Below are positions 5,090-49,833 of a stretch of DNA of 64,000 bases, in pieces. The first letter of the stretch is position 1, and each line of letters begins with the position of its first letter. The notes under the pieces are model-generated. The model was not told the origin of the DNA. It did not search any database and saw only the letters and a list, made by a program, of their open reading frames with translations. The translations under genes and the position numbers were made by a program. Source of the stretch: Acidimicrobiales bacterium (lineage in GTDB: Bacteria > Actinomycetota > Acidimicrobiia > Acidimicrobiales > Bin134); NCBI GenBank assembly GCA_965115985.1, contig OZ220474.1, forward strand, positions 3,172,504-3,236,503. Reading direction: 5' to 3'.

Positions 5090-5219
5090 AGAGCAGGCCG
5101 TGCTCATCGTGGTGGTCTGAGGAGCTGGCCGCGTTGGTCGTGGTGGTCTGAGGAAGCGGCCGCGTTGGTCGTGGTGGTCTGAGGACGCGGCCGCGCTCAC
5201 CGTGGTGGTGAGAATCAGT
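5065..5219. repeat. 5 x 31-bp tandem repeat spanning the stop of CDS 4478-5089 and the GTG of the next CDS
   Basis: Copies start at 5065, 5096, 5127, 5158 and 5189. Each carries GTGGTGGTCTGA-like ends. The first TGA (5087-5089) terminates the upstream gene. GTG 5218 is at the end of copy 5. Confidence 0.95.
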
Positions 5220-6625: not shown

Positions 6626-8229
6626 TCGCCGAGCAGTTCACCACCGAGGAGGAGGACGTACTACGGCGGTACTTCACCAACCTGGATCAGCCGGTCTTCG
6701 CCCTGGTGAACCTGCCGGAGGTGGTCAAGGGGGCCCTCTTCGCCCGCTACAGCCGCTCGCCCAAATCGCTGCGCAGGCTGTTTCTGGACGAGTTCGTCGG
6801 GGAGTTGGACATAAGCGGCGACCAGACCATCGACGCCACCGTGGGCCTGAGGAGAGCCGAGGAGCTCTACGACCGGGTGTTCTTCGAGTACGGGGACGAC
6901 TCGGTGGCCCAACTGGGCGGGGTCCACCTGGCCTGCGAGCAGGCCTCCAACATCTTGACCAAGGTGCTGGAGTGGGGTCGGCTCATGTCGTATCTGGAGC
7001 AGTCCACCCGCTACATCGACTACCTGACCCGGATCGGGGGCCGCTATCGCTACTACCGCGATCCCCAGGTGGGCGAGTCGCCCCTGTCGGGACGCTACGT
7101 GAGCGACATGGACCGGATGTTCGAGGCCTACGGCCTGCTCCTGCCGACCATGACCGAGTTCTACCGCGACAACACCCCCAAGGACTCCGGGTCCTCCGAC
7201 TTCGCCTACCACCGGGCCGTCCGGGCCAAGGCGCTGGATACCGTCCGGGGGGTGCTTCCGGCGGCGACGGTGTCGAACGTGGGCATCTACGGCACCGGCC
7301 AGTCCTACGAGCTGCTGCTTCTGCGCATGCGGTCCCACGGGCTGCCGGAGGTCCGGGCGTACGCCGATCTGATGCTGACCGAGCTCCGCAAGGTGATCCC
7401 CTCCTTTTTGAAGCGGGTGGACCTGGACGACCGGGGAGTGGCCTGGAGCCACTATCTGGGCGACGTCCGGGAAACCATGGAGCTGGTGGCCGACCACCTG
7501 CTGCTCCCCGACCTGCCGGTCGATGACGCCCCGACGGTTCGCCTGGTGGACTTCGACCCGGAGGCCGAGGTCAAGATGGTGGCCTCCATGCTCTATCCCT
7601 ACACCCATTTGCCCGAGGAGCAGTTGGAGCGCGAGGTAAGGGCCATGGGCTCCGAGGACCGGCTGTCGGTGGTACGAGCCTATGTCGGGTCCCGGACCAA
7701 CCGCCGCCACAAGCCGGGTCGGGCCCTGGAGCGGCCCTTCTACCGGTTCGACGTTTTGGCCGACTACGGGGCCTTCCGGGATCTCCAGCGCCATCGCATG
7801 CTCACGCTGGAGTGGCAGAGGCTCACCCCCGGCCATGGGTTCACCCGGCCCGAGGCGGTGGACGCCGCGGGCTGCGGCCCGGTGTTCGACGAGGTCATGG
7901 AGCGGTCGGAGACCCTGTACCACCTGTTGAACCGGGACTTTTCCGAACAGGCCGCCTACGCGGTGTGCCTGGCCTACAAGGTGCGGTTCTCCATGAGCCT
8001 GAACGCCCGATCGGCCATGCATCTCATAGAACTGCGCACCACCCCCCAGGGTCACTCCGCCTACCGCAGGATCGGACAGGAGATGTGGAGGCTCATCCGG
8101 GACGAGGCCGGTCACCCGGCCATCGCGGAGATGATGAAGTTCGTCGATCTCAGCGAGGAGCCTCCCCTGGGCCGGCTGGACACCGAAAACCGCATCGAAC
8201 AAAAACGCCGAGCCGGCCGACCGGCGTGA
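6613..8229 (+). CDS. ThyX-like (thymidylate synthase complementing protein family) large two-domain protein
   Basis: ARYSRS near the N-terminus and a later LQRHRMLT recall ThyX RHR/S motifs. At 538 aa it is about twice a canonical ThyX. This is a family-level call only. Confidence 0.5.
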   Translation: MSQYVAEQFTTEEEDVLRRYFTNLDQPVFALVNLPEVVKGALFARYSRSPKSLRRLFLDEFVGELDISGDQTIDATVGLRRAEELYDRVFFEYGDDSVAQLGGVHLACEQASNILTKVLEWGRLMSYLEQSTRYIDYLTRIGGRYRYYRDPQVGESPLSGRYVSDMDRMFEAYGLLLPTMTEFYRDNTPKDSGSSDFAYHRAVRAKALDTVRGVLPAATVSNVGIYGTGQSYELLLLRMRSHGLPEVRAYADLMLTELRKVIPSFLKRVDLDDRGVAWSHYLGDVRETMELVADHLLLPDLPVDDAPTVRLVDFDPEAEVKMVASMLYPYTHLPEEQLEREVRAMGSEDRLSVVRAYVGSRTNRRHKPGRALERPFYRFDVLADYGAFRDLQRHRMLTLEWQRLTPGHGFTRPEAVDAAGCGPVFDEVMERSETLYHLLNRDFSEQAAYAVCLAYKVRFSMSLNARSAMHLIELRTTPQGHSAYRRIGQEMWRLIRDEAGHPAIAEMMKFVDLSEEPPLGRLDTENRIEQKRRAGRPA

Positions 8230-8296
8230 GTTCTCGAGGGCGTTGATCCATGCCGAGCCGGCCGACCGGCGTGAGTTCTTGAGGGCATTGATTTAT
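8207..8296. repeat. 2 x 45-bp tandem duplication at the 3' end of the ThyX-like gene
   Basis: Copies at 8207-8251 and 8252-8296. The TGA stop (8227-8229) is in copy 1 and is repeated at 8272-8274. Confidence 0.95.
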
Positions 8297-8369: not shown

Positions 8370-8864
8370 ATGACTAACCCTGACGAACACAAGGAAGCCC
8401 CGGTGGAGGATTTCGACGAGGAAGATCTGGACGGTGATCTGGACGACGACCTCGACGGTGATCTGGATGGCGACCTCGACGACGATCTGGACGGTGATCT
8501 GGACGACGACCTCGACGACGACGAGGAGGACGATGACGAGGAAGCCGGCAACGGGTCGAACCGCGGCGGTTCGACCATGTCCGAGGATGATAACGAGGAC
8601 AAGGAGGACATAGACCCCGACAATGTGGAGGACGATCTCGACACCATCCTGAAGGATCGTCTGGCCGCGGGCGACGACGAGGACGAGGACGAGGACACCC
8701 CCGAGCCCCCGCCCGAGGCCGCGGGCCAGGTGGCCCCCAAGCGCGACAACGAATGGACCTGCGAGGGGTGTTTCCTGATCGTCAGCTCCAGCCAGTTCGG
8801 GCCTCGCGACAACCCCCGATGCCCATCGGGGGAGGAGCCCTGCCCATCGCTGGATCGGCTGTGA
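8370..8864 (+). CDS. DUF4193-like acidic protein with C-terminal Cys cluster
   Basis: Asp/Glu-rich body and C-terminal WTCEGCFLIV...RCPSGEEPC. The ATG at 8370 is preceded by gaggagg. A TTG at 8349 would give a longer ORF. Confidence 0.65.
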   Translation: MTNPDEHKEAPVEDFDEEDLDGDLDDDLDGDLDGDLDDDLDGDLDDDLDDDEEDDDEEAGNGSNRGGSTMSEDDNEDKEDIDPDNVEDDLDTILKDRLAAGDDEDEDEDTPEPPPEAAGQVAPKRDNEWTCEGCFLIVSSSQFGPRDNPRCPSGEEPCPSLDRL

Positions 8865-8934
8865 GTTCGACCGGCGACCCCGATTTGGATCGGGATCGGC
8901 TGTGAGTTCGACCGGCGACCCCGATTCGGATCGG
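8853..8934. repeat. 2 x 41-bp tandem duplication of a GTGA stop/start junction
   Basis: Copies start at 8853 and 8894. The TGA of the DUF4193 gene (8862-8864) is in copy 1. GTG 8902 of the next ORF is at the same position in copy 2. Confidence 0.95.
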
Positions 8935-9150
8935 GAGTCGTTGGACAAGCTGTTGGATGCGCTGGTGTTCGCGCCGCTGGGGCTTTTGGCCGGGCCGGCT
9001 CGATCGAACGAGGATCTGGCGGCTCGGGGCCGGCGACACCTGGAAGCCGCCAAGCTGCTGGGGCGCATGGCTCTGGATCACCCCCCGACCTCGCCCACCA
9101 CCGGCTCCAACTCCGAGCACCCACCCGCCCCGGACCCGGGCTCGAGCTGA
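8902..9150 (+). CDS. Small hypothetical protein
   Basis: 82-codon ORF bounded by junction repeats on both sides. No recognisable domain. Confidence 0.3.
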   Translation: MSSTGDPDSDRESLDKLLDALVFAPLGLLAGPARSNEDLAARGRRHLEAAKLLGRMALDHPPTSPTTGSNSEHPPAPDPGSS

Positions 9151-9842: not shown

Positions 9843-10232
9843 CCGGAGCTGTGCGTGGGGGCGGTGGTGGTGCGGGAGAGTTCCATCCTGCTCATACGCC
9901 GGGGCCATCCGCCGGGGGAGGGGCGGTGGTCGGTGCCCGGCGGCAGGGTGCAACGGGGGGAGAGCCTGACCGATGCCGTCCGCCGGGAGCTACGGGAGGA
10001 AACCGGTTTGGACGGGGAGGTCGGCGAAGCCCTCGGCTGGACCGAGCTCATAGGTCGCCGCCGTCACTTCGTGGTGGTGGACTACCGGGTCACCGTGGCT
10101 CCCGATGCCCGGGCGACGGCTGGATCCGATGCCTCCGGTGCGGCTTGGGTCGCCTTCGACGATCTCGGTAACTGGGACTTGGTGGACGGCCTTCAGCAGT
10201 TCTTGGCCGACCACGAGGTCATTCCCCGGTAG
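9834..10232 (+). CDS. NUDIX hydrolase
   Basis: Nudix box GGRVQRGESLTDAVRRELREETGL. A longer ORF from 9798 exists, but ATG 9834 is the duplicated junction start. Confidence 0.85.
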   Translation: MSGPELCVGAVVVRESSILLIRRGHPPGEGRWSVPGGRVQRGESLTDAVRRELREETGLDGEVGEALGWTELIGRRRHFVVVDYRVTVAPDARATAGSDASGAAWVAFDDLGNWDLVDGLQQFLADHEVIPR

Positions 10233-10284
10233 CCGCCGGATTATTCCCCAGTAGCCACGAGGTCATTCCCCGGTAGCCGCCGGA
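10211..10284. repeat. Duplicated 30-bp convergent stop/stop junction (period 44 bp)
   Basis: ccacgaggtcattccccggtagccgccgga occurs at 10211-10240 and 10255-10284. The NUDIX TAG (10230-10232) is in copy 1. The stop of the minus-strand gene (tca 10263-10265) is in copy 2. Confidence 0.95.
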
Positions 10285-11651
10285 GTTCTGGTGCCCCGGC
10301 GCTTGCGCTTGGGGGCGGGGGAGGGCTCCACCCCGAACAGCGACGCGATATGGGGAACCCGGTTGGCCAGTTTCTTCACCTCGGTCAGCAGTTCCTGGTC
10401 GGGTTTTTCCGGTATGCCCAGGGGCTTCACCGTCCAGCGAACCGGCGAGAACGCCACCGCTCCCAGAACGGTGATCCACCGCTTGGTCGGAGTGTCGCCG
10501 GCCAACTCGGCACTGGCCGCCTCGGTCAACCGGGTGACTATGTCCTGGGGCAGGGGCACCCCCGCTTTTGGGGGCCGGGAGCTGAGCCTCAGGGCCCGGA
10601 CCATGCGACCGTCGGCCAAAGTGGCCGCCACCTCGGCCAGCCATTCGGAATGCTCCCGATCCACCCGCTCGGTGAGCTTGGCTCGCAATTCCTCGGCCAT
10701 GGCCTTGGTCTCGTCGTCGTCGGCCCCGGTTTCGGCCGCCACCACCACCGAGCGAAGGTCGCGCAAGTCGATCTCGCCCGCTCCTGCCAATGCCGCCTCC
10801 GCCCGATCCCGCCACTCCGCGGCCCGCATCCGGGGAAGCAACTTGCGAGCCACCGCCAAGAAATCCGCGGATTTGTCGGGGGTGGGTGGTTCGTCCTTGG
10901 GTGGTTTCTTGTCGGCTTCGGTCGCGGTCTTGTCGGGGGTGGGTGGTTCGTCCTTGGGTGGTTTCTTGTCGGCTTCGGTCGCGGTCTTGTCGGGGGTGGG
11001 TGGTTCGTCCTTGGGTGGTTTCTTGGCTGCCTCGGCCGCGTCGCGGGATTTTTTGCGTTGGTCCCGAAGGGCTTGCTCCACCGAGCCGATGCCGTCCCTG
11101 ACCATCTTCTCGGCGACGGGCTTCTGGTCGTCGGGCAGGCTGTCGATCACCGCTTGACGATGGACCCGGTTGGGGCGCAGGCGTCGGGGTTGGGGACGAT
11201 CATCCTCACGCCGGGGCTTGGATCGCGAGCGATCCTTTCCGTCGCCGCCATCCCTACGGCCCCGATGATCCCGGTTGTCCCGACGGTCGTCGCGGTTGCG
11301 GCGGTCGTTGCGGTCGCGGGTGTCCCTGTCCTTGCGCCCGGACACCAACCGAGTGGTGACCAGCGCCTGCTCCCGGCCCGATCCCAGTATCTCCAACGTC
11401 TCGGGCATGGGGCGCTTCTGCTTGGCTGCGAACACCTCGATGATCTCGATGCCGTCCATGTGGAACTCGGCCTCGACGGTCACCTCGTCGCCCACCTCCA
11501 CCGGGAAGGTGAGCAGGTCGCCCGGGAGGTCGCCCTTGGGTTGGCGAGCCCCGGCGGCCCGCCATGTCCAAGAACCGTCGGAACGCCGGCTGGTCAGCTC
11601 AATCTCAATCCTTCGAGACACCGGCGGCCACGCTACCGCACCGATGCCCAA
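10263..11651 (-). CDS. Hypothetical protein with Arg/Asp-rich segment and 19-aa tandem repeats
   Basis: 462-codon ORF containing an RDRNDRRNRDDRRDNRDHRGRRD stretch and KKPPKDEPPTPDKTATEAD x 2.7. No family was recognised. Confidence 0.5.
   Translation of the reverse strand: MGIGAVAWPPVSRRIEIELTSRRSDGSWTWRAAGARQPKGDLPGDLLTFPVEVGDEVTVEAEFHMDGIEIIEVFAAKQKRPMPETLEILGSGREQALVTTRLVSGRKDRDTRDRNDRRNRDDRRDNRDHRGRRDGGDGKDRSRSKPRREDDRPQPRRLRPNRVHRQAVIDSLPDDQKPVAEKMVRDGIGSVEQALRDQRKKSRDAAEAAKKPPKDEPPTPDKTATEADKKPPKDEPPTPDKTATEADKKPPKDEPPTPDKSADFLAVARKLLPRMRAAEWRDRAEAALAGAGEIDLRDLRSVVVAAETGADDDETKAMAEELRAKLTERVDREHSEWLAEVAATLADGRMVRALRLSSRPPKAGVPLPQDIVTRLTEAASAELAGDTPTKRWITVLGAVAFSPVRWTVKPLGIPEKPDQELLTEVKKLANRVPHIASLFGVEPSPAPKRKRRGTRTPAATGE
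10872..11024. repeat. In-frame 57-bp tandem repeat x 2.7 inside CDS 10263-11651
   Basis: Near-identical DNA units encode KKPPKDEPPTPDKTATEAD. The period is divisible by 3. Confidence 0.95.
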
Positions 11652-11691
11652 TCGTAGAACTGCTGACGAGTTCCGCTGCGGCGCACATCCC

Positions 11692-12063
11692 TCAGCATCG
11701 CTCCAGCACTGCGGCGGCGGGAACGGCGAACCCCCCGAGATCGACGGCGACCGTGGCCGTGGCCGGGGTGAGCCCGATGAGCACCCTGGGGGTCCAGGCG
11801 ACCCGGGCCGTCACCCGTAGAACCGAAGAGCCGGCGTTCCGGCTCACGCATCCGGCCAGAGCGGTGCCGTCGATGCGGGTGGTGTTCACCGTGTCCGAAT
11901 CGCAGCCGCGTCCGCCACAGGTGTCGATGAACCGGGCTGCGGCCCGCTCGGCCCGGACCGCGGCCAGGTTGCGGTTGGTTATCAGTTCGCCATGGTCGGC
12001 CAGCGAGCCGGTGGTCAGCGCAATCCCTATGCCCAGGGCCAACAGGACGATGGCGGTGTACAT
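11692..12063 (-). CDS. TadE-like pilus-assembly/pseudopilin protein (actinobacterial Tad-neighbourhood type)
   Basis: Short protein with the N-terminal hydrophobic helix MYTAIVLLALGIGIAL, located at the distal end of the Tad operon. Confidence 0.5.
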   Translation of the reverse strand: MYTAIVLLALGIGIALTTGSLADHGELITNRNLAAVRAERAAARFIDTCGGRGCDSDTVNTTRIDGTALAGCVSRNAGSSVLRVTARVAWTPRVLIGLTPATATVAVDLGGFAVPAAAVLERC

Positions 12064-12495: not shown

Positions 12496-12592
12496 CCTCT
12501 GCGTGACCCGGCTCAGCGCAACTCGGCTCAGCACGATCCGGCTCCCCTCTGCGTGACCCGGCTCAGCGCAAATCGGCTCAGCATGATCCGGG
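12496..12592. repeat. 2 x 50-bp tandem duplication at a stop/start junction inside the Tad operon
   Basis: Copies start at 12496 and 12546. The stop of CDS 12578-12979 (tca 12578-12580) is in copy 2 and is repeated at 12528-12530. The next gene starts at 12487. Confidence 0.95.
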
Positions 12593-13252: not shown

Positions 13253-13981
13253 TCAGATCACGAAGATCACGGCAGCCATGACGGTGAGACCAGCGATGGC
13301 AGACACGAGAGTGACTGTGGTTCCTATGGCCCGGCCGAGCTGGTCGATGGCCAGGCGCTTCTCGGACTCCAGGGTCCGGATGGATCGGGACAGGGACTTG
13401 TCCAGCAGGTCCGAGGAAGCCGCCCCGGCCCGCTCGGCGGCCACCACCGAACTCAGCAATGGCTCGGTGGGTGATCCGGCGATGACCGCGGTTACCGCGG
13501 GCAGCGGGTCCCGGCCCACCTCCAGGGCTCCCCCTATGGCTCCCCGAGCCACGGTGAACGCCCGACCGGTCACCGTCAGGGCGGCGTTGACCGCGGCGGC
13601 GTTGATGGGCTGGCCCGACGCGGTGAGCAACCGCAGCTTGCGCATCCACTCGAGCATCTTGTGATCCCGCTCGCCGCGGTAGGCGGCCGCGGCCATGAAC
13701 CGGATCGCCGCCGGTGCCCCCTGCGGCAGCCAGGTCCCGGCGATCACCGCCACGGCCAGACCCCCGGCCCCACCGAACAGCCCCCAGCCCACCGAACCCC
13801 CGATGACCACGGCGGCGGCCGACAGGCCCCATCCGGCCACAAAAACCCGGTTGGGCGACCATCCCATTGCCGAGGCCTGAACCATGGCTCGACCCCCGGC
13901 CCGAGGAGCGGTCAGCAACAGCAGGGCGATGGCCACAACCCCCGACAGCCCGGCCAGCGCCATCATCGGGCGGCCTGCCAT
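13253..13981 (-). CDS. tadC: Type II secretion system F-family protein (TadC-like)
   Basis: Polytopic membrane protein immediately downstream of the TadB-like gene, with T2SS-F-like loop segments. Confidence 0.6.
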   Translation of the reverse strand: MAGRPMMALAGLSGVVAIALLLLTAPRAGGRAMVQASAMGWSPNRVFVAGWGLSAAAVVIGGSVGWGLFGGAGGLAVAVIAGTWLPQGAPAAIRFMAAAAYRGERDHKMLEWMRKLRLLTASGQPINAAAVNAALTVTGRAFTVARGAIGGALEVGRDPLPAVTAVIAGSPTEPLLSSVVAAERAGAASSDLLDKSLSRSIRTLESEKRLAIDQLGRAIGTTVTLVSAIAGLTVMAAVIFVI

Positions 13982-14244
13982 GCCGGGGCGTGTACCCGGG
14001 TGCAGAGTGCCGCGGTCAACACCGCCAATAGCATCATTGGGCGGCCTGCCATGCCGGGGCGTGTACCCGGGTGCAGAGTGCCGCGGTCAACACCGCCAAT
14101 AGCATCATTGGGCGGCCCGCCATGCCGGGGCGAGCACCCGGGTACAGAGTGCCGCGGTCAACACCGCCAATAGCATCATTGGGCGGCCCGCCATGCCGGG
14201 GCGAGCACCCGGGTACAGAGTGCCGCGGTCAACACCGCCAATAG
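13961..14244. repeat. 4 x 71-bp tandem repeat of the tadB-stop/tadC-start overlap
   Basis: Copies start at 13961, 14032, 14103 and 14174. Each unit holds both a TadC-type ATG (MAGRPMM) and the TadB-type TGA about 16 nt downstream. The real tadC start is in copy 1 (13981). The real tadB stop is in copy 4 (14176-14178). Confidence 0.97.
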
Positions 14245-15000
14245 CAGCAGGAGTTGCTGGCCGGCCGTCGAGGCCAGCCAGGCTCCCACGTCCCGGGCGG
14301 CAAAGCCGGTGATGGCCATCATGGCGACCGCCATCACCACCGTGGCCGCGATCTGGGGCATGAGAGCAGCCACGTGGCGATGGAAGTGGCGAGCGGTTTC
14401 GGCGGCCTCGGCGGCCTCGTCGGCCAGGACGCCGGCCAGGGTCACCCACTGCGAGCCCCCGTGGAAAGCCTCGGCCAGCATCGTGGTCACCATCTCGGCC
14501 AACGGGCGCTTGATGGTGGCCGCGAACCGGCTGGCCGCTTCCACCAGCCCCCCGGTCTCGCACTCCGCGGCCATCCGCCGGGCGGCGACTCCCACCCGAC
14601 CCGAAACCAGCGGCGCGGCATCGATGACCGCCTGAACCACCGTCGGAGCCACCAGAGCCTGGTTGGCCAGCGCGCCGGCGAGCTGGGCCAGCTCGTCGGT
14701 CTCCTTAAGGGCGCGACGTGAACGGGCCTGCACGGCGAACGCCCATGCACACACCCCGGCCAGCACGGCCGCCCCCATCCCCGTGGCCACCCCGACCAGA
14801 ACCAGTCCGGCAACGAACCCGGTGATCACCACCGAGGCGGCAATCACCGGGCCGAACCAGGACGATCCCCCTCGGGGCCGTGAGAGAACCGCCATTCCGC
14901 CGAGCCGGAGCACCGAGCGACCTCCTGTCGGGGTCGGCCACCCGATCACCGCGCACAGCGCGAGCCCGGCCACTGCGACCACCAGGATCCGAGCAGTCAT
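14176..15000 (-). CDS. tadB: Type II secretion system F-family protein (TadB-like)
   Basis: Membrane protein. ATG 15000 overlaps the CpaF stop (ATGA). The longer ORF in the track (to 16005) is an alternative-frame extension through cpaF. Confidence 0.6.
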   Translation of the reverse strand: MTARILVVAVAGLALCAVIGWPTPTGGRSVLRLGGMAVLSRPRGGSSWFGPVIAASVVITGFVAGLVLVGVATGMGAAVLAGVCAWAFAVQARSRRALKETDELAQLAGALANQALVAPTVVQAVIDAAPLVSGRVGVAARRMAAECETGGLVEAASRFAATIKRPLAEMVTTMLAEAFHGGSQWVTLAGVLADEAAEAAETARHFHRHVAALMPQIAATVVMAVAMMAITGFAARDVGAWLASTAGQQLLLLLAVLTAALCTRVLAPAWRAAQ

Positions 15001-16754
15001 GGTTTTCCTGCCGCGGGAACCGTGGCCCGGCCCCTTGAGCCCGTGGGGATCATCGTCTCGTTCGTTCGGGTTCCCGGCCCAGGGATACGTTCCTGTGAGC
15101 CCGTGGGGATCATCGTCTCGTTCGTTCGGGTTCCCGGCCCAGGGATACGTTCCCGTGAGCCCGTGGGGATCATCGACTGTCGGTTGGGGGGTGGTTCCCG
15201 GCCGTCGGCCGACCGGAGCTCGATGCCCACCGACCGGTACAACTGCTCGGCCTGGCCGTGGGGCCAGCCCACCGGGGCGGCCCACCGCCGACCGGGTTGG
15301 CGTGTCCACAGGCATCGGGTGGTGATGGTGTCGTGCTCGTCGTCGTAGCTGACGATCTGGGTGACGTCGGAGATCACCCGCTCCCCCTGCTCGTTGCGAC
15401 CCATCCACACCAAAAGATGAACGGCTATGGCGATCTGCTGGCGGGCGAACCGGGGATCGGCCCCCTCGCTGCACGCGTAGGACACCAGCTTGGCCAGCAC
15501 CCCCGGCCCCGGCTGGCTGTGGAGGGTGACCAGGCAGCCGTTGAGTCCACTGCTCATGGCGTCCAGCAACGCCAGGGTGCCCTCGCCCCGGGTCTCGCCG
15601 ATCACCAGCTTGGACGAGTTGGCCCGCTTGGCGTCCCGGATGTGGTCGCTCATGGTCAGCTTGCCCACCCCGTCGTTGTTGGCGTCCCGGGTGAGCCGCT
15701 CGAAGCTGTTGGGATGTATGCCGTACTGGGCCAGGCGCAGCTCGGGGGTGTCCTCGATGGTGTCGATCCTCTCCGAGCCGTCCACGGTGGCCAGCAGGGC
15801 CTGGCACAACGTGGTTTTCCCACCCCCCATGGCGGCGGCGATCACCACGTTGGCCCTGACCGGGCCGGACACCGCGCCCACCAGGATCCTCCTCAACTGC
15901 GGGCCGGCGACGTCGAGGGCCTCGAGGGAGGCCTTGCCGGCCATGTTCGACCTGAGGACCATCGTGGGGGGATGGCACATGAACGCCTCGGCGTGGAGCC
16001 GCCACCGATCACCGAGGCGGATGTCCAGGCGGCTGTCCAGCACGTCGAACCGCTGGGGGTGCCCGCCGGAAAAGCTGGCCAGTTGCCGAGCCGTCTCTAT
16101 CAGTTCGTCGTCGGAGGCGAACGGCGAGTCCCGGCGCTCCCGCTGCCCCTCGGAGCGGTGGACGATCATGCACTCGCCTCCCCTGATCTGGAACTCCTCG
16201 ACCCCGGGTTCGTCCAGCAGGTCGGACAGCCGACTCTGCGCGGCCTGCGAGGCCGACCAGAGATGGGTCTCGCGGTCGAGAGGATCGAGCCGGCGGGGGG
16301 CGACCGCCGCCCACACCAGCCGCCGTCCGAGGCGGCGAAGCCGGCGAAGGTGCCCCCGGGCCGGTTCCGGGGGCACCCACAGGGTGAAGACCCGCTCTCG
16401 GCGGGCATTGTCCAGTTCGGGTTGTTCATCGGACACCACCACCGACACGATCGGGGTGGACCGACGCGGCCCGCTGTCCAGCCGGAGCTGGGAACGCACG
16501 TCGGTGCTGTCGGCCGAGGTGATCCACAGCACCGCGGCCGCCGAGGCGATGGCCGATTCCAGACGAACCGCCGGCTCGTCGTCGTCCAGCGACAGCACCG
16601 TGGGATGACCGGCCGCCGACGCCCGGTCGATCTCCGCCGAAGAGGCGGCCAGCACCACGTCGGCCGCCGCGGCGGTCATCCCGTCCAGCACCCCATCCAG
16701 CACCCGTTGGGCGGCCTCGACTCCGAGCAGACGATCGCGAACCGCCAGCAGCAT
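14997..16754 (-). CDS. tadA: CpaF/TadA-family secretion ATPase with ~190-aa N-terminal extension and repeated C-terminal tail
   Basis: Walker A AAMGGGKTT, VIGETRGEG box, LTLHSQ-type His box region. 585 aa. Confidence 0.9.
   Translation of the reverse strand: MLLAVRDRLLGVEAAQRVLDGVLDGMTAAAADVVLAASSAEIDRASAAGHPTVLSLDDDEPAVRLESAIASAAAVLWITSADSTDVRSQLRLDSGPRRSTPIVSVVVSDEQPELDNARRERVFTLWVPPEPARGHLRRLRRLGRRLVWAAVAPRRLDPLDRETHLWSASQAAQSRLSDLLDEPGVEEFQIRGGECMIVHRSEGQRERRDSPFASDDELIETARQLASFSGGHPQRFDVLDSRLDIRLGDRWRLHAEAFMCHPPTMVLRSNMAGKASLEALDVAGPQLRRILVGAVSGPVRANVVIAAAMGGGKTTLCQALLATVDGSERIDTIEDTPELRLAQYGIHPNSFERLTRDANNDGVGKLTMSDHIRDAKRANSSKLVIGETRGEGTLALLDAMSSGLNGCLVTLHSQPGPGVLAKLVSYACSEGADPRFARQQIAIAVHLLVWMGRNEQGERVISDVTQIVSYDDEHDTITTRCLWTRQPGRRWAAPVGWPHGQAEQLYRSVGIELRSADGREPPPNRQSMIPTGSRERIPGPGTRTNETMIPTGSQERIPGPGTRTNETMIPTGSRGRATVPAAGKP
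15037..15176. repeat. In-frame 60-bp tandem repeat x 2.3 in the 3' end of tadA
   Basis: Units start at 15037, 15097 and 15157 and encode MIPTGS(R/Q)ERIPGPGTRTNET. The period is divisible by 3. Confidence 0.95.
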
Positions 16755-16871
16755 TAGTTGCCCCCCTCGACTCCGAGCAGACGATCGCGAACCACCGGCA
16801 GCATTAGTTGCCCCCCTCGACTCCGAGCAGACGATCGCGGACCGCCGGCAGCATTAGTTGCCCCCCTCGAC
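16716..16871. repeat. 3 x 50-bp tandem repeat of a TAATG stop/start junction (cpaB-like/tadA)
   Basis: Copies start at 16716, 16766 and 16816, with a partial copy at 16866. The tadA ATG (16754) is in the copy nearest tadA. The upstream gene stop (tta 16854-16856) is in the copy nearest that gene. Confidence 0.97.
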
Positions 16872-17546
16872 CGGGCATCCGATATCGCCGGGTCCACAGA
16901 GCACCAGCGGATCATCCTGGTAGACCTCGAACTCGCACAGGGGCCAACCCGCGGGGGGAGACTCCCATATCCACCACTGCTCGTCGGCCAAAACGGCGGC
17001 CAATTCCGGGTCGGCCTCCACCGTCACCCCGGAATCGCCGGCCTCGGTTCCGGCAGCCACCAGGTTGACCAGGGCGACAGCACAGCCCCCGGGGGTGGCC
17101 GCGAACACTGCCCGGGCCCCCGCGTACGGCCCGTCACCGGACCACATCTCGTGATTGGCCCCGATCCGTATCAACGTCGTGCGGCGGTTGTCCTCATCGG
17201 GTCGGGGGCGCAGCATCGCCGGCGACACCAGGGTGCCCTCGGGCACATCGGTGGTGGCCACGGTACCGTCCAGCTCCGGCTGGGTGATGAAGAGCCCGGC
17301 CAGGTCGGCGGGCACGCTCACGGTGGCGTGCCCCCCGGGGGGATACCCCTCGACCCATCGCTCGACGGTTGCCACCACCGGGACCTCGACTGGACCTTCG
17401 TCGTTGTCGGACAGGGCGAGAATGGTGACCACGGTGATGACCAGCACCGTCCCCGCGGCCATCAGCCGCCACCGGAAACTCACCGGCCAATCCGCCGGCG
17501 ACCATTGGTCCTTTTCCGGGCGGGTCACCATGTGGTCACCTGCCAT
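16854..17546 (-). CDS. CpaB/RcpC-like (SAF-domain) pilus assembly protein candidate
   Basis: N-terminal TM segment LMAAGTVLVITVVTILAL followed by a TDVPEGTLVSPAML SAF-like segment. It lies directly upstream of tadA. The start is 17546 or 17531. Confidence 0.5.
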   Translation of the reverse strand: MAGDHMVTRPEKDQWSPADWPVSFRWRLMAAGTVLVITVVTILALSDNDEGPVEVPVVATVERWVEGYPPGGHATVSVPADLAGLFITQPELDGTVATTDVPEGTLVSPAMLRPRPDEDNRRTTLIRIGANHEMWSGDGPYAGARAVFAATPGGCAVALVNLVAAGTEAGDSGVTVEADPELAAVLADEQWWIWESPPAGWPLCEFEVYQDDPLVLCGPGDIGCPVEGGN

Positions 17547-17613
17547 TGGTCCTTTTCCGGGCGGGTCACCATGTGGTCACCTGCCATTGGTCCTTTTCCG
17601 GGCGGGTCACCAT
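17502..17613. repeat. 2.7 x 41-bp tandem repeat of an ATGGTGA stop/start junction
   Basis: Copies start at 17502, 17543 and 17584. The stop of the 615-aa gene (tca 17607-17609) is in the copy nearest that gene. The cpaB-like starts are in the distal copies. Confidence 0.95.
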
Positions 17614-19454
17614 ATCGTTACCCGTTCGGTCAGATAGTCGTTGGGCTCGCGGAACCAGGACAGATCCTCGGCCAGAACCTCGGTGTGGCGATGGCCCTGT
17701 TCGGAGGTGTATTCGACTTTTAGCTGCCACTCCCAGAAGCCACGCCGAGGAATCACCCACCGACATTTCCCGTAACGTTCCCGCCAATCGGTGGACAGGG
17801 ACAGCACCCCGCCGGTGGGCACGGTCCAGGGGGGCAGTTCCTGGGGCGAGCACCAGACGGTTGCCGGATCGGCCGAGGGGAACGCCGTTCGGAACCATTG
17901 CTTGCGCTGCTGATCCATTCGATCCCATAAATCGGCGGCAGCCCGGGCGGTATCGGCCGCGGCCGTGTTCCCCGGTGATCGCAGTTCGGCCAGCTCGGAA
18001 GCTACGTAGGGGAGCAATTCCCGCAACGACACCCCCACTGCGGTCGCGGTCCACCAGCACCCGTTCACCGGGTTGTCCAGCACATCGAGCGTCGCTCCCG
18101 GTTGCAGGGCCGTCCAGTGACGGACGGGGTTGCCGGGCCCGGAGGCCGCGGTCAAGAACAGTTGCCCACCGGGAACCTCCGGGTGGTGATGGTCGGTGAA
18201 GCCGCCGGCGTAGGGAACAATCGACTCCCACCGCACCCGTTCCCGCAGCGACGTCCGGGTTTGGTCGGTCCACCCCGACGAGCAGACCTTCTCCTCGTCC
18301 TTCTCCGTCGGGGGCGGCGGCAGGTATGGACGAGGAGTGGAAGTCGGGGGCGGAGGGGGCGGCGGCAGATACGGACGAGGAGTGGAAGTGGGTGGCGGAG
18401 GGGGCGGCGGCAGATACGGACGGGGGGTGGAAGTGGGTGGCGGAGGGGGCGGCGGCAGATATGGGCGGGGAGTGGGAGGTGGTGGCGGGGGAGGGGGTGT
18501 CGGAGTTGGGCAGGTCTTGGACATGGTTGCGTGTCTGGGGTGGGGGCCGACCCAGTACAAGGTCCGACCCGCCCTGCCCACGCACGACGGCTCCGATCCT
18601 GATTCCCGCAAGCAGGTGCTGCTGTGGCCGAAGTGCTTGTGGAACCCCGCCGAACAACCAGGATCAGGTGGCGGTGTCGGCGGCGGGGGAGGGGGTGTCG
18701 GAGTTGGGCAGGTCTTGGACATGGTTGCGTGTCTGGGGTGGGGGCCGACCCAGTACAAGGTCCGACCCGCCCTGCCCACGCACGACGGCTCCGACCCCGA
18801 TTCCCGCAAGCAGGTGCTGCTGTGGCCGAAGTGCTTGTGGAACCCCGCCGAACAACCAGGATCAGGTGGTGGTGTCGGCGGCGGAGGTGGTGTGGGGGTC
18901 GGCAGGGCCCGGCAGGTTTTGGACATGGTTGCGTGTCTGGGGTGGGGGCCGACCCAGTACAAGGTCCGACCCGCCCTGCCCACGCACGACGGCTCCGACC
19001 CCGATTCCCGCAAGCAGGTATTGCTATGGCCGAAGTGCTTGTGCAATCCCGCCGAACAACCAGGATCGGGCTTTTGTTGCATGGTGTATCGCCAGAAGTA
19101 CGTCCTCGGTGTCCACCAGTGGCTCCCGGCGGGAAACTCGTACCATGCTCCGGGCGTGTTGGACGCGGGCGGGCTGTGTCCGCACCCCTCGCTGGTACTG
19201 TGAACCACGCAGGTGCTGGAGCGAGCACCCCCGGTGGGCCGTGGGCCATAAGGCGTCCCGGCATACTCGATGAACCGGTTGGTGTGGGTGTACTCGTGGA
19301 TCACTCGCACTCGAGCGGTCCAGCACCACTCACCCACGGATGCGCCGGCGCACGGGGGGAAGTTGAAATTGAACTTCATGTCCGCGGCCACCGGCGCAGC
19401 GACGAATGGCGGGGCCAGCAGGGAGATGACGACGACCGTGACGATCACCCTCAT
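17607..19454 (-). CDS. Secreted Cys/His-rich repeat protein of unknown function
   Basis: Signal peptide MRVIVTVVVISLLAPPFVAAPVAA from ATG 19454. It has three 66-68 aa modules, four 15-aa Pro-rich units and a C-terminal domain of about 230 aa. A longer ORF to 19598 runs through an intergenic repeat. Confidence 0.6.
   Translation of the reverse strand: MRVIVTVVVISLLAPPFVAAPVAADMKFNFNFPPCAGASVGEWCWTARVRVIHEYTHTNRFIEYAGTPYGPRPTGGARSSTCVVHSTSEGCGHSPPASNTPGAWYEFPAGSHWWTPRTYFWRYTMQQKPDPGCSAGLHKHFGHSNTCLRESGSEPSCVGRAGRTLYWVGPHPRHATMSKTCRALPTPTPPPPPTPPPDPGCSAGFHKHFGHSSTCLRESGSEPSCVGRAGRTLYWVGPHPRHATMSKTCPTPTPPPPPPTPPPDPGCSAGFHKHFGHSSTCLRESGSEPSCVGRAGRTLYWVGPHPRHATMSKTCPTPTPPPPPPPPTPRPYLPPPPPPPTSTPRPYLPPPPPPPTSTPRPYLPPPPPPPTSTPRPYLPPPPTEKDEEKVCSSGWTDQTRTSLRERVRWESIVPYAGGFTDHHHPEVPGGQLFLTAASGPGNPVRHWTALQPGATLDVLDNPVNGCWWTATAVGVSLRELLPYVASELAELRSPGNTAAADTARAAADLWDRMDQQRKQWFRTAFPSADPATVWCSPQELPPWTVPTGGVLSLSTDWRERYGKCRWVIPRRGFWEWQLKVEYTSEQGHRHTEVLAEDLSWFREPNDYLTERVTIW
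18309..18473. repeat. In-frame 45-bp repeat x 3.7 (TPRPYLPPPPPPPTS)
   Basis: Coordinates were derived from protein residues 376-430 of ORF 17607-19598. Confidence 0.9.
18474..19067. repeat. In-frame 198/204-bp repeat x 3 (Cys4/His-rich module)
   Basis: The module DPGCSAG(F/L)HKHFGHS(S/N)TCLRESGSEPSCVGRAGRTLYWVGPHPRHATMSKTC plus a Pro/Thr linker is repeated, nearly identical at DNA level. Confidence 0.95.
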
Positions 19455-20745: not shown

Positions 20746-21168
20746 ATGGACAGCACCGTCTCCAAGTTCGACTCGGCCCGCATGGCTCGACAGCGAACTC
20801 GCGACACCGGGCCCGAGATGGTGCTGCGACGAGAGCTTCATCGCCGGGGCCTGCGCTATCGGGTGAGCTACCCGGTTCCGGGGAATCCGAGGAGGTCGAT
20901 CGACATCGCGTTCGTCAAGCCTCGCCTGGCCGTCTTCGTGGACGGCTGCTTCTGGCACGGCTGCCCCACCCACGGAACATGGCCGACCAACAACGCCGAA
21001 TGGTGGAGGAACAAGATCGAGAGGAACCGCAGGCGCGACACCGACACCGATCGCCTCCTTCGAGAGGACGGCTGGGAGCCCCTGCGCTTCTGGGAGCACG
21101 AGGTCGCCGCCGCCGCCGACCGCGTCCAGGCCGCCTATATCCAACGCCTCCGGGCGATCCGCCCATAG
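20746..21168 (+). CDS. vsr: Very short patch repair endonuclease
   Basis: TGPEMVLRRELHRRGLRYRV, IDIAF..AVFVDGCFWHGCP, and the WW-RNKIERNRRRD pattern typical of Vsr. Confidence 0.9.
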   Translation: MDSTVSKFDSARMARQRTRDTGPEMVLRRELHRRGLRYRVSYPVPGNPRRSIDIAFVKPRLAVFVDGCFWHGCPTHGTWPTNNAEWWRNKIERNRRRDTDTDRLLREDGWEPLRFWEHEVAAAADRVQAAYIQRLRAIRP

Positions 21169-21180
21169 GCTCTCGGACGG

Positions 21181-21314
21181 CCATGCCCCGCACCATCCGC
21201 CCATGAGCTCCCGAACAGCCATGCCCCGCACCATCCGCCCATGAGCTCCCGAACAGCCATGCCCCGCACCATCCGCCCATGAGCTCCCGAACAGCCATGC
21301 CCCGCACCATCCGC
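21181..21314. repeat. 3.5 x 38-bp tandem repeat at the vsr/dcm junction
   Basis: Copies start at 21181, 21219 and 21257, with a partial copy at 21295. Each carries atccgcccATGAgc. A more diverged copy at about 21143-21180 supplies the vsr stop (TAG 21166-21168). Confidence 0.95.
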
Positions 21315-22400
21315 TCGATCGACCTGTTCGCCGGAGCGGGTGGCTTGTCGCTGGGGTTCGAACTGGCCAACGAGGAACTGATGGGCATCGGCTTCGAGCC
21401 GGTTTTTGCCGTCGAGCACGATCCCGCGGCCGCCCTGACCTACAAGACCAACTTCGGGGTGGGGGTGTACGACGGTGACATCGAGGGATTGGATCCGATC
21501 ATCTACCCGAACGCGGAGATCGTCATCGGTGGTCCTCCCTGCCAGGGCTTTTCCCCACTCGGTCGCGACCGTGACGACAAGTCCCGTACCCGGTTGAATG
21601 CGCTTTGGGAGCACTATCTAGCTGCGGTGGAGCAAGTGAAGCCGCTGGCTTTCGTGATCGAGAACGTCCCCGAGTTCCAAAAATCCTCCGAGTTCGACGA
21701 ACTGCGCCGGCGGATGGCATCGCACCGCCTGCTTCGGGAGTACGGATACGGGTTCGGGGTGCTGAACGCGGCGGACTACGGGGTGCCCCAAAGCAGGCGT
21801 CGGGGCATCTTCCTCGCGGTAAGAGGCCGAGAGGTTCCCTGGCCTCCACCACCCACCCATGGCCACGGCTCCATCGGACAAGAACCGGTCAGGACGGTGC
21901 GGGATGCCATTGGGGATTTACCACCTGTACCCACCACCGACCGACCAGCCATGAGAGACGGTTTTCAGGATCTGCACATTCGCCGGAACCCTCGCCCGAC
22001 GTCACTGGAGCGGTATCGAGCCATTCCCGAGGGAGGCAACCGGTTCGACCTCCAGCGGAATCGTCCCGACCTGACCCCGGCGTGCTGGGCCAACAAGCCA
22101 ACCGGCACCACCGACGTCATGGGCAGGCTCTGGTGGGACCGGCCGAGCTTCACCATCCGCACCGAGTTCTACAAGCCCGAGAAAGGTCGATATCTGCACC
22201 CCTGCGAAGACCGCCCCATAACTCACCGCGAGGCCGCCCGCCTCCAAACCTTCCCCGACCCGTTCATCTTCGAGGGTACCAAGATCGAGATCGCCCGCCA
22301 GATCGGCAACGCCGTACCCCCTCTACTGGCCAAGGCCATCGCTCTTCACACTGCAAAACTTCTTGTTTCAAAAAGCGACATAAAATTTGTCGCTTTTTGA
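21279..22400 (+). CDS. dcm: DNA (cytosine-5)-methyltransferase
   Basis: Motif I DLFAGAGG, motif IV GGPPCQGFS, motif VI FVIENV, QSRRRGIF, motif X GNAVPPLLA. The start is 21279 or in-frame 21297 (MPRTIRSIDLF). Confidence 0.92.
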   Translation: MSSRTAMPRTIRSIDLFAGAGGLSLGFELANEELMGIGFEPVFAVEHDPAAALTYKTNFGVGVYDGDIEGLDPIIYPNAEIVIGGPPCQGFSPLGRDRDDKSRTRLNALWEHYLAAVEQVKPLAFVIENVPEFQKSSEFDELRRRMASHRLLREYGYGFGVLNAADYGVPQSRRRGIFLAVRGREVPWPPPPTHGHGSIGQEPVRTVRDAIGDLPPVPTTDRPAMRDGFQDLHIRRNPRPTSLERYRAIPEGGNRFDLQRNRPDLTPACWANKPTGTTDVMGRLWWDRPSFTIRTEFYKPEKGRYLHPCEDRPITHREAARLQTFPDPFIFEGTKIEIARQIGNAVPPLLAKAIALHTAKLLVSKSDIKFVAF

Positions 22401-22986: not shown

Positions 22987-23050
22987 CGTCCATGGACGTT
23001 ACATCAGGCTGCTACGCTGAAGTGGCGATCGTTGAGGAGGGAGGTGTCTG

Positions 23051-37733: not shown

Positions 37734-37747
37734 CGTAGCCTGAAGCG

Positions 37748-40009: not shown

Positions 40010-40198
40010 CCCAGGGCGTCCTCGGTCCATTCGATCTCGGGGACATGCTGATCGGCCAGCGTGGCCGCCGCCCGACCCATCAGCCCAGGGCGTCCTCGGT
40101 CCATTCGATCTCGGGGACATGCTGATCGGCCAGCGTGGCCGCCGCCCGACCCATCAGCCCAGGGCGTCCTCGGTCCATTCGATCTCGGGGACATGCTG
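40010..40198. repeat. 2.5 x 74-bp tandem repeat between glcB and the sulfotransferase gene
   Basis: Copies start at 40010, 40084 and 40158. Each contains ggacATGCTG. The last, partial copy provides ATG 40193. Confidence 0.95.
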
Positions 40199-45701: not shown

Positions 45702-46435
45702 TGGTCACCGGGGCCGGGTCGGGAATCGGCCAGGCCACTGCGGCCCGGCTGGTGGGCGAGGGAGCGGTCGTGGTGGGCAGCGACGTCAGTTCGTCCGGCC
45801 TGGAGGAGACCGCGGGGATGATCGATGGGATGGTCGATGGAGCCGGGGGTTTCCATCCGGTGGTGTCCGACGTGCGCTCCCGGGAGGCCTGCCATGAGTT
45901 GGTGGCCTCGACCGTGGCCGAGCACGGGCAACTGGACGTGCTGTGCAACATCGCCGGGTTGGCCCGGAGCCATCGAGTGGGCGATGTGGATCAAGGCACC
46001 TGGGATCTGATCATGGAGGTGAACGTGGGCGGGGTGTTCTGGATGTCGCAGGCCGCGCTCCCCCACCTGGAGGCCTCCGGGGGGTGCATCGTGAACATGG
46101 CCTCCAACGCCGGGCAGATCGGGCAGGCCTACACCGTGCCCTACTGCGCCAGCAAGGGAGCGGTGATCTTGATGACCAAGGCCATGGCCATGGAGACCAT
46201 CCGCACCTCGGTGAGGATCAACGCCGTCGCTCCGGGTGGGGTGGACACCAACCTGGTGACGTCCTTCGGGTTTCCCGACGACCCGGACATGGAGCTGATG
46301 GGGCGATACATGGGCTTTCGAGGAATGGCCCAGGCCGACGACATCGCCTCGGCGGTGGCCTACCTGGCCTCCCCCGAGGCCCACCGCATCCACGGAGCGG
46401 TCCTGAACGTCGATGCCGGCTTGACCGCCGGATGA
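45677..46435 (+). CDS. SDR-family oxidoreductase
   Basis: VTGAGSGIG Rossmann motif and YCASKGAV catalytic motif. Confidence 0.85.
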   Translation: MRFSGKVALVTGAGSGIGQATAARLVGEGAVVVGSDVSSSGLEETAGMIDGMVDGAGGFHPVVSDVRSREACHELVASTVAEHGQLDVLCNIAGLARSHRVGDVDQGTWDLIMEVNVGGVFWMSQAALPHLEASGGCIVNMASNAGQIGQAYTVPYCASKGAVILMTKAMAMETIRTSVRINAVAPGGVDTNLVTSFGFPDDPDMELMGRYMGFRGMAQADDIASAVAYLASPEAHRIHGAVLNVDAGLTAG

Positions 46436-46595
46436 GCTGGGGTCCTGAACGTCGATGCCGGCTTGACCGCCGGATGAGCTGGGGTCCTGAACGTCGATGC
46501 CGGCTTGACCGCCGGATGAGCTGGGATCCTGCCGGTCGCCGGGTGTTGGTCACCGGATGAGCTGGGATCCCGCCGGTCGCCGGGTGCTGGTCACC
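46400..46595. repeat. Nested tandem duplications (3 x 42 bp, then 2 x 41 bp) around an ATGA junction between two SDR genes
   Basis: ggATGAgctggg occurs at 46430, 46472, 46514 and 46555. The first TGA (46433-46435) stops SDR 1. The last ATG (46557) starts SDR 2. Confidence 0.97.
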
Positions 46596-47348
46596 GGGGC
46601 CTCGTCGGGCATCGGGGCCGCCCTGGCGGTGGAGTTGGGCCGGGGCGGAGCCTTCGTGGGCCTGGCCGCCCGCCGGGGCGACCGCCTCCAGCAGGTTCTG
46701 TCCGAGGTACGGGCCGCGGGCGGCGACGGCTGCTGGTGGACGCTCGACCTGGCCGATCTCGACGAGGTGGCCCCCTTCGCGGCGCGGGCCTGGGCGGAGA
46801 TGGGCCCCATCGACGTGCTGGTCAACAACGCGGGTGCTCCTCGACGACGGTCGATGAAGAGGCTCACCCCCGAGGAGCTGGACGAGACGTTGGCAGTGAA
46901 CTTCACCGGCTCGGCCCGGCTCACCCTGGCTCTTTTGCCCCACATGCTGGAGCGGGACTCCGGGGACATCGTGAACGTGTCGTCCATGGGCACCCAGTCG
47001 ATGGCCTTCAGAACCGGGGCCTACGGCGCGGCCAAGGCCGCCATCAACCTGTTCACCGAGGGCCTGTACATGGATCTGGCCGGAACCGGTGTCCGGGCTC
47101 ATCTGTTCGTCCCCGGCAGCACCGCCACCGAGTTCTCCACCCCCAAACCGGGCAACGACCGCCCGTTCCCCCAGCCCGAAGGGGCTTCCATGGACCCGGT
47201 GGACGTGGCCCGAGCCCTGATCGCCAAACTGGGCACCGACGACTTCGAGGGCTTCGCCGCCCCCGATCTCGAAAAAACCGCCCAAGCCAAACGCTCCGAC
47301 CCCAACCACTACCTGACACAAATGCTCAACCACCTCTCCCGACGCTAA
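46557..47348 (+). CDS. SDR-family oxidoreductase
   Basis: VTGASSGIGAA Rossmann motif and YGAAKAAI catalytic motif. Confidence 0.85.
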   Translation: MSWDPAGRRVLVTGASSGIGAALAVELGRGGAFVGLAARRGDRLQQVLSEVRAAGGDGCWWTLDLADLDEVAPFAARAWAEMGPIDVLVNNAGAPRRRSMKRLTPEELDETLAVNFTGSARLTLALLPHMLERDSGDIVNVSSMGTQSMAFRTGAYGAAKAAINLFTEGLYMDLAGTGVRAHLFVPGSTATEFSTPKPGNDRPFPQPEGASMDPVDVARALIAKLGTDDFEGFAAPDLEKTAQAKRSDPNHYLTQMLNHLSRR

Positions 47349-49811: not shown

Positions 49812-49833
49812 CTGTCCAAATATCCACCTCTTG

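Follow-up and report, generated by a model that had tools for sequence, protein, structure and literature searches.

In a window of 64,000 nucleotides from an Acidimicrobiales bacterium (contig OZ220474.1, positions 3,172,504 to 3,236,503 of the forward strand), a tandem array of four 71-bp units lies between two membrane-component genes of a Tad-like pilus operon, called here tadB and tadC. The name tadB is a label by position only. The repeated unit is the junction of these two genes itself. We read the array as a recent, near-neutral and lineage-specific amplification from one copy to four, kept since both genes stay intact and translational coupling would be able to pass along the chain of copies. 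A probability of about 0.68 is assigned to this reading. The contig is chromosome-scale (3.37 Mb) and is the sole record of its species in the genome collections searched.

Structure and ancestry of the 71-bp array

Tandem Repeats Finder (TRF) detected 4.03 head-to-tail copies of the 71-bp unit with 97% matches and no indels (score 509; coordinates of this and further features are collected in Table 1). The array is confirmed as real and far beyond chance. With at least two head-to-tail copies of high identity and a unit in the range of about 10-100+ bp, it is a minisatellite, a locus of the variable-number tandem repeat (VNTR) type. On the minus strand, a copy reads TGCTATTGGCGGTGTTGACCGCGGCACTCTG[T/C]ACCCGGGT[G/A]C[T/A]CGCCCCGGCATGGC[G/A]GGCCGCCC[A/G]ATGA, and every copy contains ...GGCATGGC[G/A]GGCCGCCC[A/G]ATGA. 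The segment takes in 68 nt from the end of the tadB-position gene, along with the stop/start overlap (ATGA) and 2 nt belonging to tadC. The flanking genes are now 213 nt (3 x 71) farther apart than with a single copy.

A search of the genome collections with the secretion ATPase of the operon returned 80 loci, all from sponge-associated Acidimicrobiia, many of them labelled 'Candidatus Poriferisocius' and many chromosome-scale. In the best relative, L001 (NZ_OZ241836.1), the ATPase is 87% identical, and the sequence is colinear with the window from 4.5 to 22.4 kb, with about 81% of the nucleotides identical. L001 has 73 nt (1.03 units) where the array lies between its flanking anchors, and the excess in the window is exactly 3.00 periods. 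About 35 close relatives have a single-copy junction, with which the unit aligns; the copy number thus differs between species, four here versus one there.

In each copy of the array, an ATG opening the peptide MAGRPMM is followed 16 nt later by the TGA of the tadB frame. The TadB-position open reading frame (ORF) of the relatives likewise ends 19 nt past the position aligned to 'MAGRPMM'. In place of the upstream ATG, the 23 relatives examined have a CTG or TTG codon, and all 23 read ...CC[G/A][A/G]TGA..., i.e., a 4-nt ATGA (or GTGA) stop/start overlap. Gene callers start the TadC homologues, including that of this genome, at the ATG of the ATGA, which gives 237 aa. Because of the CTG/TTG codon in the relatives and the calling of TadC from the ATGA, the ancestral tadB/tadC overlap is 4 nt; the upstream ATG (13981) is specific to the lineage and a side effect of the synonymous change GCC>GCA in tadB.

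The ATG of the ATGA begins one base before the TGA, and the period is 72 - 1 (2 mod 3). Translation from the ATG of copy n therefore runs through copy n+1 in the tadB frame up to the next TGA, and each extra copy is a complete, closed ORF of 24 codons, MMLLAVLTAALCTRV[L/H]APAW[R/Q]AA[Q/R] plus stop, with an ATGA overlap at either end. The resulting layout is tadB-ATGA-orf-ATGA-orf-ATGA-orf-ATGA-tadC. Copy 1 holds the last 22 codons and the TGA of the tadB-position gene. The tadC-like gene starts in copy 4, where its translation from 13966 begins MMALAGLSG..., with the lineage-specific ATG at 13981 as an alternative start. In the peptides of the mini-ORFs, the TadC start is joined to the C-terminal helix predicted for TadB.

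The stop/start overlap that marks coupled gene pairs is found as ATGA in all four copies and at the single junction of the relatives. Within 20 nt upstream of the tadC ATG no GGAG, GAGG or AGGA motif was found, and expression of tadC by reinitiation is therefore plausible. The efficiency of coupling drops as the distance between stop and start grows (PMC12548453), and passages of two sources describe overlaps or very short spacing as a requirement for coupling (PMC10666635; PMC12548453). Of the possible architectures, that of the array is the one with the best prospect of preserving coupling and not breaking it. What the array does to coupling and stoichiometry of TadB and TadC would be a reasonable question.

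The original prediction, made from the letters of the window without database searches, had described four copies of the junction, the MAGRPMM start with a TGA 16 nt later in each, and about 210 nt of repeat between two membrane-component genes. All this was borne out, the measured excess being 213 nt. Its ancestral overlap of about 19 nt has to be replaced by the 4 nt seen in the relatives, and the intermediate copies, thought to encode only short out-of-frame peptides, are the three complete ORFs in the tadB frame.

The copies also record part of their history. Copies 1 and 2 are identical and have the L001-like base at four sites at which copies 3 and 4 carry a common derived base. In the tadB frame, two of these four changes alter the amino acid (L>H and R>Q), as would be expected once that frame was no longer needed. 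At a fifth site, which is the only difference between copies 3 and 4, the ancestral CGATGA is found in copy 4 only and CAATGA in copies 1-3. Copy 3 is thus a recombinant, with the right-hand type at sites 1-4 and the left-hand type at site 5, a pattern which unequal crossing-over or slippage would produce from two copies that had already diverged. Most simply, the history would comprise at least three events, i.e., one duplication, then (after five substitutions) two expansions. Divergence and recombination of the copies point to an array that evolved in the cell, and not to an error of assembly.

According to the proposed mechanism, the 71-bp segment was amplified by slipped-strand or unequal recombination, in a sponge-symbiont genome where tandem duplications of 20-200 bp arise at an unusually high rate. 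The array would have no dedicated function. As the duplication spans the junction, copy 1 completes tadB and copy 4 begins tadC, and the array would persist because both genes are left intact. Ribosomes which finish tadB would be passed on by repeated termination-reinitiation along the ATGA chain to tadC.

Arrays across the window and their periods

The same TRF run found about 20 near-perfect arrays of long period in the 64 kb, with periods of 22-198 bp and 1.9-5.6 copies. Almost all are located at gene starts, gene stops or in intergenic spacers. Their units showed no similarity to each other or to any other part of the window, whether compared all-versus-all or each against the window. At several of the arrays, where L001 is colinear, the corresponding sequence is present once only. 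Five arrays lie on or beside successive junctions of the pilus operon (starting at 12496, 13961, 15032, 16715 and 17502). Ordinary chromosomal genes are affected elsewhere, namely those of ThyX, Vsr/Dcm, isocitrate lyase, malate synthase G, short-chain dehydrogenases and a sulfotransferase. The pattern of junction arrays is probably genome-wide.

For a test of placement, 18 stringent arrays (unit ≥ 20 bp, identity ≥ 90%) were considered in the 64 kb. Eleven touch the end of a called gene, compared to 3.5 expected by random placement, and two are inside a gene, compared to 11.3 expected; in 20,000 random placements, neither value was ever reached. The window contains 2.81 arrays per 10 kb (1.72 with a period not divisible by 3). 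The corresponding values are 0.49 (0.10) in 1.55 Mb of clade relatives, 0.59 (0.13) in the chromosome-scale relatives only, and 0.048 (0.029) in 1.03 Mb of unrelated metagenome contigs; the latter were obtained by a malate synthase G scan and represent distant taxa only (≤ 63% identity). This amounts to about one array per 3.5 kb, approximately 58x the density of the unrelated contigs and 6x that of the clade relatives. Within the 21.5 kb syntenic with the relatives' loci, the window has ten arrays and each relative's locus about 1.3.

The periods follow the reading frame. In window and relatives together, the period is divisible by 3 in 42 of 42 arrays inside genes. Outside genes, 26 periods are 0, 21 are 2 and five are 1 mod 3 (chi-square p = 0.001); among those not divisible by 3, the 21 versus 5 departs from equality (p = 0.0012), and the relatives alone give 12 versus 3. 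Missed genes were rejected as a trivial reason for the excess of 2 mod 3, since the period of an array within a gene has to be 0 mod 3. A test for relay ORFs took the arrays that duplicate an upstream stop in front of a co-directional gene, and resulted in ten relay, six in-frame and two broken cases (binomial p = 0.019 for 10 versus 2, p = 0.033 for at most two broken of 18). In the in-frame class, the period is divisible by 3 and the downstream ORF is lengthened instead. These counts argue for a rule, well supported but not proven, according to which each unit forms a closed ORF when the period equals start frame minus stop frame (mod 3). A relay array at locus L034 has a period of 67 (1 mod 3) and a stop-to-start offset of 7 (1 mod 3) and fits this rule, which is therefore not merely '2 mod 3'.

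Relay arrays that are independent of those in the window were found in L061 (50 x 3.9), L044 (74 x 3.6), L008 (38 x 3.4) and L001 (50 x 2.3). The unit of the L061 array encodes VSAAGWTMLGERNGAPK plus stop, with GTGA overlaps on both sides. The L001 array (17348-17461 of that locus) is separate from the window array at 8852-8936 and lies at the same GTGA junction; both periods are 2 mod 3 and both arrays are relays, and either recurrent duplication or an old shared one would account for the pair. In the array between the genes of the Vsr very-short-patch endonuclease and the C-5 cytosine methylase (20746-22400, plus strand), the first copy has TAG where later copies carry ATGA.

Sequences at the unit ends give hints on how such arrays arise. 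The 50-bp unit at 16715 has a 7-nt direct repeat, GTCGAGG, at its ends, and single-copy L001 already carries GTTGAGG...GTTGAGG at this site; a repeat of this kind is what slipped-strand duplication classically acts on. At the 71-bp unit, microhomology is limited to 2 nt. Long partial copies, in a Y-Z-Y-Z-Y structure, occur in about half of the window arrays. For the array at 17502, L001 has Y only (30 nt), and the 11-nt spacer Z (CAGGTGACCAC), absent from L001, is new sequence resembling the start of Y. Therefore, the founding event there was not a clean duplication, which hints at Z being templated filler. Non-integer copy numbers (2.4-2.7 and 5.6) with this structure are seen in the arrays at 17502-17613, 15032, 37588, 40010, 41489 and 43486. 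At the 12496 junction, L001 carries a Y-Z-Y duplication, too.

The 41-nt unit of the 17502 array (17532-17572, minus strand) folds unusually well as RNA (-16.2 kcal/mol, z = -3.1 compared to shuffled sequences); no such folding was found for the 71-bp and 50-bp units.

Weighing of the explanations

Several points weigh against a near-neutral amplification that preserves coupling. The copy number is taken from the assembled contig alone. Reinitiation across four consecutive ATGA sites may be inefficient. The statistics on periods are small (10 versus 2; 21 versus 5) and come from our own gene calls; gene positions were obtained with a simple codon-usage gene caller, which assigned 74-84% of the sequence as coding. 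The window is a sample of 64 kb from a chromosome of 3.37 Mb. Arrays with partial copies (Y-Z-Y) are not fully explained by simple slippage, and for the high duplication rate there are candidate causes only, i.e., a change in repair or replication or weak selection in a symbiont could be responsible.

The strongest alternative, which is still unlikely, is an adaptive rheostat or contingency locus. Copy number would be selected to set, or reversibly switch, the ratio of TadB to TadC and hence pilus output, each reinitiation step passing on a fraction of the ribosomes. The array is indeed placed between two subunits of one machine, ahead of a tadC gene which has none of the three motifs named above, and how efficient coupling is depends on spacing (PMC12548453). 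A chain of four reinitiation steps will probably be less efficient than a single step. Furthermore, the array is old enough to have collected five substitutions before it expanded again, and a different genus has independently acquired an array on the neighbouring ATPase/tadB-position junction (L061). Against a rheostat speak the like arrays on unrelated housekeeping junctions (ThyX, Vsr/Dcm, dehydrogenases, malate synthase), in view of which no role specific to Tad is indicated, and the about 35 relatives that do well with one copy.

An assembly or sequencing artefact, in which mis-assembly or an amplification chimera multiplied one true copy, is very improbable. In its favour, the collections searched contain just one contig of this genome, and the copy-to-copy junction sequence of the array had no match in the metagenome contigs of the Joint Genome Institute (JGI). 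Exact-protein look-ups of the TadC-like protein (242 aa and 237 aa) retrieved no recorded contig. An artefact is contradicted by the differences between the copies, whose variant pattern requires divergence followed by recombination. The respect for reading frames (multiples of 3 throughout inside genes, both ORFs intact at junctions) is beyond what an artefact would produce. In addition, a chromosome-scale contig of this size is typical of long-read assembly, which easily spans 286 bp, and related long-read genomes have comparable arrays at other loci.

Slightly less credible again is a function of the products, be they useful hydrophobic micropeptides that copy TadB's last helix or a structured RNA with a regulatory role. 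For such products speak three intact mini-ORFs with conserved start and stop codons, whose peptide matches what is predicted as the C-terminal helix of the TadB-position protein. None of the relatives has the peptides, however, and the L>H and R>Q changes in the extra copies suggest relaxed constraint. As for an RNA, there was no Rfam match, the folds of units and array were no better than those of shuffled sequences (z = 0.09, -0.32 and -1.9), and a promoter and terminator scan found no sites resembling either.

Least probable of all is a mobile element like the interspersed repetitive units of mycobacteria (MIRUs), i.e., a dispersed short repeat inserted at the tadC start codon with its ORF coupled at -4, which shares with the array tandem units in an operon junction and an ORF overlapping the flanking genes with its start and stop (PMC12548453), but is ruled out because the unit is local in origin and unique: this is the local tadB 3' end plus junction, aligning 1:1 with the relatives' single copy, and units of different arrays resemble neither each other nor the rest of the window.

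Beyond the near-neutral amplification of this one array, a wider scheme can be put forward tentatively. In this chromosome and, to a smaller extent, in its sponge-symbiont clade, Borg-like duplication (named after the giant elements compared below) might seed hundreds of locus-specific arrays, selection for coupling might filter the periods at junctions down to those that equal start frame minus stop frame (mod 3) or are multiples of 3, and surviving chains of mini-ORFs could tune the product ratios of operons while their copy number drifts.

Taken by itself, the locus is of modest interest as a gene junction turned into a minisatellite; the whole window around it is more interesting. A bacterial chromosome with about one young, locus-specific array per 3.5 kb is rare, and the sole comparable case found in the literature concerns the archaeal Borg elements. 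The arrays carry what looks like a signature of selection, namely only periods divisible by 3 inside genes and mostly link-preserving periods on co-directional junctions. Should this bias hold chromosome-wide, it would be population-genetic evidence for selection on termination-reinitiation coupling at many operon junctions, and would suggest that stepping-stone ORFs can carry coupling over hundreds of bases, as proposed for MIRUs. If both the Borg-like origin and the selection for coupling were true, the genome would represent a natural genome-scale experiment on termination-reinitiation. The lineage is a candidate for finding the drivers of bursts of short tandem duplications, for instance a defect in repair or replication, or relaxed selection in a symbiont. 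For annotation, the lesson is that intergenic 'gaps' in such genomes are duplicated gene ends and not regulatory regions.

Neighbouring genes and comparison with known systems

On the minus strand, the operon consists of a SAF-domain (CpaB-like) gene, a T2SSE ATPase, the 274-aa membrane protein, the 237-aa protein and several small genes. Two ATGA-linked genes for helical membrane proteins directly downstream of a T2SSE ATPase, with a SAF-domain gene upstream, correspond to the platform pair of Tad systems. The 237-aa protein can be assigned to the T2SSF family (TadC-like) from its profile matches: PF00482 was found in 11 of 11 homologues (best E = 5.6e-6), while the protein of the window itself scores 18.4 bits against a Pfam cut-off of 25.2, aligned over profile positions 1-123 of 125. 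The TadB-position protein and 20 homologues had no T2SSF, other Pfam or NCBIfam match, and a profile search of the PDB gave no match for the protein. Comparison of its profile with that of the TadC-like protein by hhalign yielded a probability of 10%. Its AlphaFold2 (AF2) model (predicted local distance difference test, pLDDT, 76) had nothing significant in a Foldseek search against the PDB, the sole lead being SpoIIIAB (6bs9_C; probability 0.85, E = 2.7). One NCBI record labels a homologue 'type II secretion system F family protein'. Of the TadB/TadC pair named by the original prediction, the TadC part is thus retained and the TadB part lacks a T2SSF signal. Nor is the pilus operon a setting specific to the array, given about 20 unrelated arrays across the window, many on ordinary chromosomal genes.

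Table 1. Coordinates of the arrays and operon genes (window positions unless a contig is named; peptides are given up to the stop codon)
Feature	Position	Strand	Description
71-bp x 4.03 tandem array	13961..14246	-	TRF; copies aligned in register; 3.00 extra periods versus L001
Array copies 1-4	14246-14176, 14175-14105, 14104-14034, 14033-13963, plus 2 nt	-	copies in register
Relay mini-ORF 1, MMLLAVLTAALCTRVLAPAWRAAQ	14105..14179	-	translation; ATG overlaps tadB TGA, TGA overlaps next ATG
Relay mini-ORF 2, MMLLAVLTAALCTRVHAPAWQAAQ	14034..14108	-	translation
Relay mini-ORF 3, MMLLAVLTAALCTRVHAPAWQAAR	13963..14037	-	translation; TGA overlaps tadC ATG (ATGA)
TadC-like T2SSF-family gene	13253..13966	-	237 aa from ATG of last ATGA; PF00482 in homologues
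TadB-position membrane protein gene	14176..15000	-	ORF, translation; 274 aa, homologues 271-274 aa
T2SSE (CpaF/TadA-type) secretion ATPase	14997..16754	-	Pfam T2SSE E = 3.6e-14; ends in ATGA overlap with tadB-position gene
50-bp x 1.9 array	12496..12591	-	junction of two downstream small operon genes
60-bp x 2.4 in-frame array	15032..15175	-	C-terminal tail of ATPase
50-bp x 3.1 array	16715..16871	-	SAF-protein/ATPase junction TAATG; relay ORFs MLP[A/V]VRDRLLGVEGGN, unit ORF MLPAVRDRLLGVEGGN
41-bp x 2.7 array	17502..17613	-	next junction upstream, ATGGTGA; relay ORFs MVTRPEKDQWQVTTW
41-bp x 2.1 array	8852..8936	+	GTGA junction, relay
38-bp x 4.2 array	21157..21314	+	Vsr/C5-methylase junction, 14-nt spacer; relay ORFs MPRTIRP
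74-bp x 2.6 array	40010..40198	+	start of sulfotransferase gene; unit ORFs linked by ATGCTGA
Adjoining arrays 42 x 3.2 and 41 x 2.1	46399..46597	+	ATGA junction of two short-chain dehydrogenase genes
41-bp array of this pair	46512-46597	+	ATGA; unit ORF MSWDPAGRRVLVTG (translation of unit)
Further arrays	486-586, 5059-5209, 8207-8292, 10219-10284, 18310-19067, 37588-37725, 41489-41677, 42403-42557, 43486-43633		
50-bp x 3.9 perfect array, L061 (Ca. Aldehydirespirator sp., OZ244836.1)	11630-11822		ATPase/tadB-position GTGA junction, different genus

Further features were noted in the window. The composite array at 18310-19067 consists of 45 bp x 4.0 adjoining 198 bp x 2.9, has no confident gene call, and L001 differs in length there. 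The genes of isocitrate lyase and malate synthase G are divergent (35224-39997), with a 56-bp x 2.5 array in their common upstream region (37588-37725), which could affect promoters rather than coupling. Short-unit arrays at 34045-34190 (12 nt x 12.2, GTGGGAGTGGCA) and 34493-34572 (18 nt x 4.2) are different in kind from the junction arrays; the region around 34 kb has only a weak gene call of 58 aa (34093-34269). Segments of lower G+C content (52-57% compared to about 68% elsewhere) at 22000-24000, 48000-50000 and 54000-62000 are free of short junction arrays. This DNA may have been acquired recently and have spent less time here, or G+C may influence whether arrays form. A giant ORF of lower G+C (52595-63523, plus strand; about 3,640 aa) is built from modules of two sizes, about 288 nt (96 aa) and about 1.3 kb, the latter repeated 4-5x with 73-93% identity; from its sequence it looks like a large repetitive protein of the surface or adhesin type.

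The array, then, is a junction-derived minisatellite inside a window-wide pattern. For tandem duplications of gene ends in bacteria, no direct precedent was found in the literature, and four known systems offer partial likenesses. In termination-reinitiation coupling (ATGA, TGATG), stop and start codons overlap as they do at every unit boundary here, where the ATGA is ancestral, and the relatives have the canonical -4 overlap; known cases link two real genes directly, whereas the three filler ORFs here would act as stepping stones. Locus-specific bacterial VNTRs and minisatellites share the local head-to-tail copies, the microhomology at unit ends (16715 array) and the recombinant internal copies. 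They differ in density, at about one per 3.5 kb and 58x unrelated contigs in this window, and in the systematic placement on gene junctions.

MIRUs and MIRU-VNTRs are tandem units of 40-100 bp in an actinobacterial lineage, located between operon genes and containing a short ORF which overlaps the flanking start and stop at -4 (PMC12548453). Since this ORF is coupled at -4, translation can continue past the unit and insertion into an operon does little harm (PMC12548453). The three 24-codon ORFs with ATGA on both sides have the same -4 overlap. MIRUs are dispersed and apparently mobile, with related sequence at many loci, whereas each array here derives from its own local junction and no cross-matches were found between units or within the window.

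The closest likeness, as a phenomenon, is to the repeats of Borgs, giant extrachromosomal elements of Methanoperedens; the mechanism can be compared by analogy only. Passages of PMC9879509 describe these repeats as pervasive, recent, near-perfect, unique to their locus and independent in related genomes, with units always divisible by 3 in ORFs and not so in intergenic regions, some arrays beginning in gene ends, and flanking partial repeats being common (PMC9879509). The arrays of the window show all these traits and are, as a phenomenon, of the pervasive type seen in Borgs. According to the same passages, roles as regulatory RNA or in disordered proteins have been proposed for Borg repeats (PMC9879509). 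The Borgs are archaeal and extrachromosomal, their repeats A-rich and mostly of shorter units, and a period bias of the coupling type is not mentioned in those passages (PMC9879509). Here, in contrast, the arrays belong to a bacterial chromosome of 68% G+C, are concentrated on stop/start junctions and have periods biased to coupled mini-ORFs.

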